Of a DNA stretch of 64,000 nt, positions 21,602 through 21,737 are shown one piece after another. Location of the stretch: positions 887 through 64,886 of the forward strand of contig JBBCJA010000018.1 of the NCBI GenBank assembly GCA_037189585.1, read 5' to 3'. Below the pieces are notes generated by a model. The model made no database searches. It saw nothing but the letters and a program-made list of their open reading frames with translations, and had not been told where the DNA came from. The translations under genes were made by a program, and so were the position numbers. Source of the stretch: Selenomonadaceae bacterium. Lineage in GTDB: Bacteria > Vulcanimicrobiota > Xenobia > Xenobiales > JADMJV01. Numbering within the stretch: the first letter of the stretch is position 1; each line of letters opens with the position of its first letter.

Positions 21602-21737
21602 TTCGTCTCGAACGCGACCCAACCTGAAAAGCTTACATACTAGCTCATCGGTAGAGCGCTCCACACCTAACGGAACGGTTGCGGGTTCGATTCCCGCGTG
21701 TAATCAAAGCTTTTCTAACTCGCGCGTTCGAAACGAA
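21602..21737 (+). ncRNA. tRNA-like element closed by a long terminal helix (candidate Y-RNA-like RNA next to the TROVE gene)
   Basis: Canonical D arm gctc-atcggta-gagc (21643-21657) and T arm gcggg-ttcgatt-cccgc (21681-21697). The acceptor is only 4 bp (21637-21640/21698-21701) and the weak anticodon stem carries a 9-nt loop. The acceptor is extended by a 9-bp helix (21626-21634/21707-21715) and a 5+9-bp helix (21602-21616/21723-21737) with one C.A mismatch. Confidence 0.55.

Follow-up and report, generated by a model that had tools for sequence, protein, structure and literature searches.

What kind of RNA has the D and T arms of a transfer RNA (tRNA), a poorly paired acceptor and anticodon stem, and two ends that pair with each other over a long distance, and what does it do next to a gene for a Ro60-like protein? 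This question is raised by positions 21602-21737 of the window, the 64,000-nucleotide (nt) stretch of contig JBBCJA010000018.1 (Selenomonadaceae bacterium, phylum Vulcanimicrobiota in GTDB) that was analyzed here. The original prediction, made from the letters of this DNA, described the element as a tRNA mimic of Y-RNA-type design located immediately upstream of a TROVE gene. The complete element, named unit A, occupies positions 21600-21739 on the + strand. Its fold, its score against a family covariance model and its homologous units identify it as a real, strongly conserved small RNA gene. It is a tRNA mimic and not a decoding tRNA, and it is probably a Y-RNA-like noncoding RNA whose partner is the Ro60-fold protein of the gene 139 nt downstream.

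Unit A is composed of a handle, formed by the two ends of the RNA, and of a tRNA body. The outer helix of the handle, P1, pairs ttcgt-c-tcgaacgcg (21602-21616) with cgcgttcga-a-acgaa (21723-21737) over 14 base pairs (bp) with a single C.A mismatch, the 3' strand being placed by the family alignment A3 described below. It is followed by an internal loop with acccaacct on the 5' side (21617-21625, family consensus CCCYRAY) and taactcg on the 3' side (21716-21722, family consensus NAACUUG). The 5' side is conserved in all classes of units and is a candidate site for protein recognition, and the 3' side is conserved in alignments of BLAST matches. The middle helix, P2, has gaaaagct (21626-21633) as its 5' strand and 21708-21715 as its partner; in the window copy a ninth pair (t21634-a21707) extends it to the 9-bp helix gaaaagctt (21626-21634)/aagcttttc (21707-21715). 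At the place of the tRNA acceptor, P3 sets tacatac (21634-21640) against gtgtaat (21698-21704), and four of the seven positions pair (three Watson-Crick and one G-U). The 3' strand of P3, a short unpaired joint and the 3' strand of P2 together fill positions 21698-21715, as judged from the sequence, the fold and A3.

The tRNA body (21641-21697), delimited by the Rfam tRNA alignment and by stem covariation, carries U8, A9, a D arm (gctc at 21643-21646, loop atcggta with its GG, gagc at 21654-21657), an anticodon arm (21659-21675), the variable loop cggtt and a T arm (gcggg at 21681-21685, loop ttcgatt, cccgc at 21693-21697). The anticodon arm is degenerate, with three central pairs between a C.A and an A.C mismatch, and its loop can be read either as 9 nt or as the 7-nt CACCUAA with two mismatched closing pairs. 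The D arm with GG in its loop, the T arm, the four acceptor pairs, the C.A mismatch with a 9-nt loop and the nested terminal helices of 9 and 14 bp had all been noticed in the original prediction, and all agree with the sequence, the 7-nt reading of the loop being equally legible. RNAfold returned the same overall architecture with an anticodon stem of 3 bp; in the acceptor, the minimum free energy (MFE) structure uses a non-tRNA register and the centroid leaves the strands unpaired. The MFE of unit A is -50.7 kcal/mol compared with -34.4 ± 3.5 kcal/mol for 200 dinucleotide shuffles (z = -4.7), none of which folds as well.

The Rfam tRNA model (RF00005) matches 21634-21703 at 33.8 bits, a weak score that exceeds the gathering score of 29 (E = 0.0028 for the window), and its alignment flags the mismatches of the acceptor and anticodon stem. 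ARAGORN calls no tRNA at unit A, in line with the earlier statement that this is not a normal tRNA, and CCA is not encoded there. A decoding tRNA would have a 7-bp acceptor with a free 3' end and a 5-bp anticodon stem closed by a 7-nt loop, whereas the acceptor of unit A runs on into P2 and its anticodon stem retains three of five pairs. The acceptor and identity elements of decoding tRNAs would also vary with the anticodon, whereas P3 is nearly invariant across the 31 anticodons found in the family. Because the handle encloses the acceptor end, and because one acceptor sequence accompanies all anticodons, unit A is classed as a tRNA mimic.

The conservation of this architecture was followed in 170 loci, comprising 80 genome loci, 80 metagenome loci and 10 close-relative contigs, which are cited below by L numbers. 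Unit A and its flanks are approximately 70-87% identical to more than 100 units at related loci, where usually at least two units occur, on the strand of the gene. In A3, a non-redundant alignment of 48 sequences examined against a structure written from the window fold, 94.6% of the cells are paired and 27 of the 37 pairs change on both sides. Covariation scores 0.462; column shuffles give 0.19 (none of 500 reaches the observed value), and sliding the partners by one to three columns gives 0.085-0.125. The inner 10 pairs of P1 are 94% paired, and eight of them change on both sides (for example, CG/GC/UA); P2 is likewise paired in 94% of cells, with changes on both sides in six of eight pairs. 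Covariation extends to the tRNA body, where it is seen in five of five anticodon-stem pairs, three of four D-stem pairs and three of five T-stem pairs. P3 behaves differently: its sequence is almost invariant (UACAUAC/GUAUG), with five family-conserved pairs and essentially no covariation. The helices first proposed from a single sequence are hence conserved and covarying at related loci. R1, the covariance model built from A3, retrieves the window element at 21604-21735 with 114.7 bits (E = 6e-27) and, applied to the 80 genome loci with a threshold of E ≤ 0.001, gives 344 matches. The family has no Rfam entry, and no description of it was found in the literature searched; a few cyanobacterial members may stand in the supplements of Chen et al. 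2014 (PMC4201824).

The same handle carries cores of several kinds, and unit length ranges from approximately 80 to approximately 220 nt because the handle is constant and the core varies. All classes share CGYG-CCCYRAY on the 5' side, rAGC-yUACAyAC, and GCUU...NAACUUG-CRCG on the 3' side. The pattern used for the census of motifs partly fixed the CC..A.Y positions in advance, so that their conservation in the census is not independent evidence, and it did the same for the ACUUG core of the 3' internal loop. The AGCUUACAUAC and GCUU blocks, which this pattern did not contain, show 80-95% conservation across 347 distinct units. UACAYAC is at least 80% conserved in these 347 units, 119 of which fall outside the tRNA-like length range; therefore, what had been called a crippled acceptor, correctly as far as its four of seven pairs are concerned, is in fact a sequence-conserved handle helix that is kept in units without a tRNA body.

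The first class of cores (class a), to which the window copy belongs, is the tRNA body in D/anticodon/T order. Of the 127 distinct tRNA-like units, 107 have a 7-nt anticodon loop and 95 have all five anticodon-stem pairs; 31 different anticodons occur, with the loop signature C-U-NNN-R-A. The crippled anticodon of the original prediction is thus true of the window copy and peculiar to it, most relatives being intact, and this copy appears to be a degenerate member derived from a CCU-anticodon type that is intact in L162. In some relatives the tRNA body is interrupted by hairpin insertions while the handle remains intact. The long ones (L162:3595-3750 and L165:45-200, approximately 130-150 nt; L167:1680-1870, approximately 190 nt) follow the 5' strand of the acceptor or lie in the region of the D stem, and that of L001:3880-3915 (approximately 34 nt) lies in the T loop. 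The position between the acceptor and the D arm is a recurrent insertion hot spot.

The second class (class b) consists of units of approximately 150 nt in which a T arm, an acceptor-like hairpin and a D arm follow each other in the permuted order of the bacterial Y RNA YrlA. Their scores against the Rfam YrlA model, 22-31 bits, are below its gathering score of 69. Examples are L060:2388-2538, L067:1336-1492 and many Nostoc and Microcoleus loci. These units stand in the same arrays as class a, and therefore both tRNA-mimic topologies coexist in one array. Between handle units of L067, positions 1805-1998 match Rfam RAGATH-7 weakly over the full length (31 bits and E = 8e-4, the gathering score being 111.8), a similarity that is probably not significant. 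Class c comprises short hairpins in units of approximately 80-100 nt, typically located just before the gene start.

The remaining classes are cyanobacterial and resemble functional sites of ribosomal RNA (rRNA), a likeness that was scored by local alignment to one Escherichia coli rrn operon with shuffle controls. In class d, units of approximately 190 nt (L024:1877-2066, L035:1707-1895, L064, L071, L078 and L104) carry a core that matches E. coli 23S positions 1909-1941 (helices H69-H71) at up to 30 of 33 positions, with an alignment score of 54 versus a shuffle maximum of 35. Class e units, of approximately 208 nt, lie between the Ro60-like gene and the gene for a 275-amino-acid protein (L014:5462-5669, L004:8531-8738, L018:7260-7468 and about 20 more cyanobacterial loci). 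Their core matches 23S positions 1036-1104, the GTPase-associated center (H42-H44), with a score of 63 versus a shuffle maximum of 35; the consensus fold reproduces helices like H42-H44, and 24 of 25 units display the exact sarcin-ricin loop AGUACGAGAGGA in a small hairpin. A BLAST search of an rRNA-mimic unit against all E. coli genomes returned nothing, the database being too large for such short matches. The window itself holds no rRNA mimic, as judged from the sarcin-ricin 12-mer, the GTPase-center motif and local alignment of positions 20608-21215, RNA-1 and unit B (a second handle unit, described below) to 16S and 23S rRNA.

The variety of cores bears directly on the possibility that the units are genuine precursors of tRNAs or tRNA-like RNAs, in which the helices would be a processing platform, for example for RNase III/E and then RNase P/Z, and a product of approximately 72 nt would be functional. 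In the relatives such a product might be charged and decode, including with CUA, UUA and UCA anticodons. Most relatives do keep a 5-bp anticodon stem and a 7-nt C-U-NNN-R-A loop, and ARAGORN calls many of their units as tRNAs, with cta, tta and tca anticodons among them. YrlA of Mycobacterium smegmatis is cut by RNase P and receives CCA (PMC4201824), four loci have their units right behind arrays of 10-21 tRNA genes, and a normal tRNA-Pro of the window also has a leader-trailer helix. Such a precursor is nevertheless unlikely, as the same handle flanks short hairpins, rRNA mimics and permuted YrlA-type cores, and one imperfect acceptor sequence (five family-conserved pairs; four of seven in the window) would have to serve 31 anticodons. 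Furthermore, CCA is not encoded, the anticodon stem of the window copy is broken, and the handle is kept intact where the tRNA body has taken up insertions of approximately 130-190 nt or, in the T loop, of approximately 34 nt. The internal loop also shows sequence conservation, for which a stem serving only in processing would have no need. An ordinary tRNA precursor was rejected on account of the non-tRNA cores on the handle, the constant acceptor and the absence of an encoded CCA.

The location of the units ties them to a single gene family. All 300 of the R1 matches listed for the genome loci lie on the strand of the gene (+), and the motif census over the 170 loci counts 378 units on this strand and 1 on the other. 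Upstream sequence of 1.5 kb or more was available for 120 loci; a unit precedes the gene in 112 of them, and in 92 a tRNA-like unit does. This arrangement might also be expected if the units were cis-acting parts of the mRNA leader, serving as operators through which the Ro60-like protein would autoregulate its translation or the stability of its message. Unit B ends 17 nt before the GGAGG of the window gene, the short Nostoc unit (approximately 80-90 nt) lies 50-140 nt before the start codon at many loci, and no terminator separates units and gene. However, units are also found up to 2-3 kb upstream, behind other open reading frames (ORFs), or downstream of the gene, and elaborate and diverse cores are needless in an operator, which makes a purely cis-acting role decidedly improbable; known Y RNAs are themselves co-transcribed and then processed, and the two roles are compatible. 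That unit A could be a decayed tRNA pseudogene, or the remnant of a repeat or mobile element, with functionless flanking complementarity is extremely improbable: its acceptor and anticodon stem are damaged and the hairpin insertions of some relatives look like small mobile elements, but pseudogenes with chance helices, repeats and small mobile elements are all contradicted by the compensatory changes, which span several phyla and affect 27 of the 37 pairs, and by the constant linkage to one gene family with a strand bias of 378 to 1, and the loop and P3 are conserved in sequence across unit classes.

The gene downstream of unit A (21878-23341, +) encodes a 487-amino-acid protein for which the original prediction had used the name TROVE. 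As a statement about sequence this name did not hold: Pfam and NCBIfam return no TROVE domain, in Pfam even at E ≤ 10, and weak von Willebrand factor A (vWA) signals at residues 284-387 are the only domain matches. At the level of fold the kinship was recovered. AlphaFold2, run on a 22-sequence alignment, gave a model with a predicted local distance difference test (pLDDT) score of 82, in which an N-terminal ring of helical repeats precedes a C-terminal vWA domain. The top 13 Foldseek matches of this model in the PDB are all Ro60, Rsr or TROVE structures (including 2nvo, 1yvp, 9nfa and 9l5y from phage phiLo), with full-length alignments, E values of 8e-12 to 6e-9 and template modeling (TM) scores of 0.59-0.68. 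The DxSxS motif of the vWA metal ion-dependent adhesion site (MIDAS; D300, S302 and S304 in residues 300-304) is invariant. The predicted structure thus has the helical ring and the MIDAS-bearing vWA domain of Ro60 and Rsr without a TROVE domain detectable in sequence, and by this model the protein is a member of a cryptic Ro60-like family that is TROVE at the fold level only.

This family is large. At least 2,701 homologues of the 487-amino-acid protein exist, mostly cyanobacterial and approximately 62% identical, and they are annotated as "vWA domain-containing" or "hypothetical"; other hosts are Vulcanimicrobiota, Armatimonadota, Actinomycetota and a 595-kb phage. A megablast search of the locus against a phage collection returned nothing, and tblastn retrieved this one uncultured phage (L172, LR756511.1, positions 128-3288 and 4001-5491), whose Ro60-like protein is 48% identical. 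Handle units precede its gene on the same strand: at least two are full tRNA-like units (93 and 77 bits), and several others are shorter.

The reading of unit A as the RNA partner of this protein brings these observations together. As in Y RNAs, the element is close to the gene for a Ro60-fold protein on the same strand, 139 nt upstream, and has a long end-formed stem with a conserved internal loop (P1, loop, P2) whose helices covary. The Y-RNA-type design of the original prediction, an end-formed stem bearing a tRNA mimic beside a Ro gene, is supported by these features and by the Ro60 fold of the neighboring protein. The cores of YrlA type found on the same handle and in the same arrays tie the family to the world of Ro60 and Y RNAs, and the Y-RNA-like reading is therefore considered the best.

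Several results weigh against it. The 5' strand lacks the Ro60-binding motifs of known Y RNAs (GGUCCGA, GNCGAAN0-1G or CGAA): the window 5' strand, CUCGAACG, is one mismatch away from the YrlA motif, and the family consensus CACUUCGYG does not contain it. Besides tRNA, no Rfam model, Y_RNA and YrlA included, matches the window element at E ≤ 10, and the element shows neither the model match nor the permuted order that would make it a YrlA. Ro60 was not recovered for the 487-amino-acid protein by phmmer and profile searches of the PDB, and its link to Ro60 is one of predicted fold, at 13-17% identity. Finally, the canonical C-U-NNN-R-A loop in most relatives leaves room for a function that requires release as a tRNA-like molecule.

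If unit A is indeed Y-RNA-like, its action might be envisaged as follows. Because no terminator-like site occurs on the + strand between the gene for a 66-amino-acid protein upstream and the Ro60-like gene, the unit RNAs are probably processed from a polycistronic transcript; unit A would be cut from an RNA that also carries the 66-amino-acid ORF, unit B and the Ro60-like gene. The two ends pair into the handle, with P1, the conserved internal loop, P2, and P3 at the place of the tRNA acceptor, and the tRNA body, which has the D arm, anticodon arm, variable loop, T arm and usual tertiary-contact nucleotides, sits atop it. By analogy with Y RNAs, the handle would dock on the Ro60-like ring and display the tRNA body to tRNA-recognizing factors, which it may recruit or by which it may be attacked. 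A conservative version of this display, modeled on Yrn1 of Deinococcus radiodurans and PNPase, is that the RNA tethers processing or decay enzymes.

A more specific function can be proposed tentatively. Anticodon loops, H69, the sarcin-ricin loop and the GTPase center are classic targets of ribotoxins and anticodon nucleases, and the displayed repertoire of such targets makes a decoy or damage-bait function attractive. The handle would be a universal adaptor by which the Ro60-like protein holds look-alikes of the most attacked RNA sites of translation, namely tRNA bodies with many anticodon loops, 23S H69-H71, and the sarcin-ricin loop with the GTPase-associated center. These would serve as decoys or damage-sensing baits for anticodon nucleases, ribotoxins and rRNA-modifying enzymes from phages or competitors, and an oligonucleotide/oligosaccharide-binding (OB)-fold protein, a ThiF/E1-like enzyme and a small ubiquitin-like protein encoded nearby would read out or repair the damage. 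The window unit A would be the tRNA bait of a reduced, two-unit system. This proposal is possible but far from likely.

The second unit of the window, unit B (21752-21847, +), was found by a local search with R1 (24.1 bits, E = 1.4e-6) and is the window example of class c. It has the same handle around a short, non-tRNA core (ggtcgtcgcg / acctcat / gagaac / ttacacac ... gtgttctc / caaacttt / cgcg-a-acgacc), and its equivalents are present in L161, L162, L164, L165 and L166. Its fold is weakly better than chance (z = -2.0; 7 of 200 shuffles as good). Unit B is located between unit A and the ribosome-binding site, and the ATG of the Ro60-like gene follows at 21878; the description of unit A as immediately upstream of the gene therefore needs correction.

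In the clade of the window the gene order is 66-amino-acid ORF, unit A, unit B, Ro60-like gene, 275-amino-acid gene and 211-amino-acid ThiF/E1-like gene. The first ORF (21383-21583, +), whose product ends in VYG, is conserved upstream of the RNAs in this clade: the 66-amino-acid gene is present in L162, L163, L166, L167, L168 and L170, and an ORF of 85-89 amino acids in L161 and L169. A weak Pfam match to the USP7 ubiquitin-like (Ubl) domain (E = 0.008) suggests that its product is possibly ubiquitin-like. The 275-amino-acid protein (23429-24256, +) has predicted OB folds, and its gene is a conserved neighbor of the Ro60-like one across phyla; 23348 is the start of the listed ORF, of which homologues cover only the last 275 residues. 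The last gene of the conserved set encodes a 211-amino-acid ThiF/E1-like adenylyltransferase (24261-24896, +; Pfam ThiF, E = 2.6e-29) that matches PADLOC E1-E2 models. Pfam, NCBIfam and PADLOC provide no family for the Ro60-like protein, the 66-amino-acid ORF or the 275-amino-acid protein. The trio of Ro60-like, 275-amino-acid and ThiF-like genes is also found in the Nostoc locus L060. Beyond it, at approximately 24900-27511, a U32-peptidase-family protein similar to the tRNA U34 hydroxylase TrhP is encoded in the clade of the window only.

Other structured RNAs surround this gene set. A third tRNA-related RNA, without the family handle, lies at 21215-21351 (+), just before the 66-amino-acid ORF. 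Its acceptor of 7-8 bp (GAAGCGG/CCGCUUC) is followed by an encoded A-CCA, and it has a small D-like hairpin, the T arm ACGGG-UGCAAAU-CCCGU and, in the place of the anticodon arm, a long hairpin of variable length (MFE, -71.6 kcal/mol; z = -4.4). Its ends are invariant in L162 and L168-L170, where nine long-arm pairs show covariation; L161, L166 and L167 do not have this RNA. Preceding it, 20657-21200 (+) is a region of approximately 550 nt without a credible ORF that is 71-93% conserved in all close relatives. It starts with a conserved promoter, TTGACA-N17-TACATT (20657-20685), and continues with conserved hairpins, an intrinsic terminator (20901-20947) and a second conserved structured block. 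Its substitutions show no 3-nt periodicity, and the region has no Rfam match and no similarity to rRNA; a search of 20500-21450 with Rfam gave nothing credible. The region probably represents one or two noncoding RNAs.

Ordinary tRNA genes occur in the window and near the units of some relatives. In the window, the tRNA-Pro gene at 5537-5611 (61 bits) stands alone and has AGG, an unusual anticodon. Within 5513-5641 (+) it is enclosed by a leader-trailer helix of 11-12 bp (CTCGTAAGCAG/CTGCTTACGAAG), followed by a terminator, and it carries no handle motifs. At L025:35-2400, L026:85-2635, L029:20-2000 and L038:109-1530, which are of Leptolyngbya or Myxacorys type, 10-21 ordinary-looking tRNA genes lie directly upstream of the units and the Ro60-like gene on the same strand. 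They recall the long tRNA arrays that are induced by stress in cyanobacteria; papers about those arrays make no mention of the set of handle units and Ro60-like gene.

Bacterial Y RNAs have been represented by three experimentally studied species and by covariance-model predictions near recognizable TROVE genes. To these the present locus adds a large Ro60-fold family hidden under the annotation "vWA domain-containing", a new handle architecture that attaches a tRNA mimic through its acceptor end, and a modularity in which one handle serves normal-order tRNA mimics, permuted YrlA-type mimics and mimics of rRNA functional sites. The modular family with its rRNA-site mimics is a more surprising result than unit A itself. 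Its modularity opens the question of what RNA mimicry is for in Ro60 ribonucleoproteins to direct tests in tractable cyanobacteria, such as Nostoc punctiforme, and suggests that current annotation underestimates both the spread and the diversity of Ro60 systems.

Among known RNAs, precursors with pairing leaders and trailers, such as the tRNA-Pro at 5537-5611, share with unit A the extension of the acceptor stem, but the tRNA-Pro has a 7-bp acceptor, a score of 61 bits and its own terminator, and it lacks the internal loop and the P2 and P3 motifs. The tRNA-like domain of transfer-messenger RNA (tmRNA) and viral tRNA-like structures are likewise tRNA mimics within a larger RNA, with mimicry of the T arm and D loop. 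Their acceptor is free and chargeable, whereas that of unit A is closed off by the handle. Metazoan Y RNAs and the Yrl1 and Yrl2 RNAs of phage phiLo have the same end-built stem-bulge-stem with a variable apical domain, and the phiLo RNAs also adjoin a Ro60 gene with several RNAs per locus. They differ in having no tRNA body and in their GGUCCGA or CGAA motif, and the Rfam Y_RNA model misses unit A.

The genomic setting is that of bacterial Y RNAs. These come in sets of two or more, encoded on the strand of the Ro60 gene and no more than 4 kb from it (PMC4201824), and in bacteria and phages they are located upstream of it (PMC4201824, PMC12135203). One RNA of each set is usually a simple hairpin, as in YrlB and Yrn2 (PMC4201824) and in Yrl1 and Yrl2 of phiLo (PMC12135203), and the core of unit B is analogous to YrlB or Yrn2. 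Mycobacterial and Deinococcus Y RNAs are reported to be processed from polycistronic transcripts (PMC4201824). YrlA (RF02553), known from Salmonella, Mycobacterium and many other bacteria and phages, resembles unit A in its place upstream of a Ro60-type gene on the same strand, in an end-formed stem that carries a tRNA mimic with canonical D and T arms, and in its company of a second, simpler RNA, YrlB. In YrlA, the end-formed stem is followed by a variable region, the T arm, a loop-closed acceptor-like stem and the D arm, and the ends lie at the position of the anticodon (PMC4201824). This T/acceptor-like/D order without an anticodon arm contrasts with the D/anticodon/T order of unit A, whose ends enter at the acceptor; in addition, the motif GNCGAAN0-1G is not conserved in the handle family, and the partner protein is not TROVE by sequence.

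Entry through the acceptor side, proposed originally as a possibly distinct topology, thus does separate unit A from YrlA but has a precedent in Yrn1 of D. radiodurans, which is oriented opposite to YrlA and appears to have evolved independently (PMC4201824). Yrn1, which tethers Rsr to PNPase, has a T arm and, after a D-like region, an anticodon-like arm of 5 bp with a 6-nt loop (PMC4201824), and its entry side is that of unit A. It differs in lacking a full D arm and a variable loop, in the 6 nt of its "anticodon" loop and in having no orthologues by BLAST. The Ro-binding helix of Yrn1 is like that of metazoan Y RNAs, whereas the handle family combines a complete tRNA body with another conserved handle.

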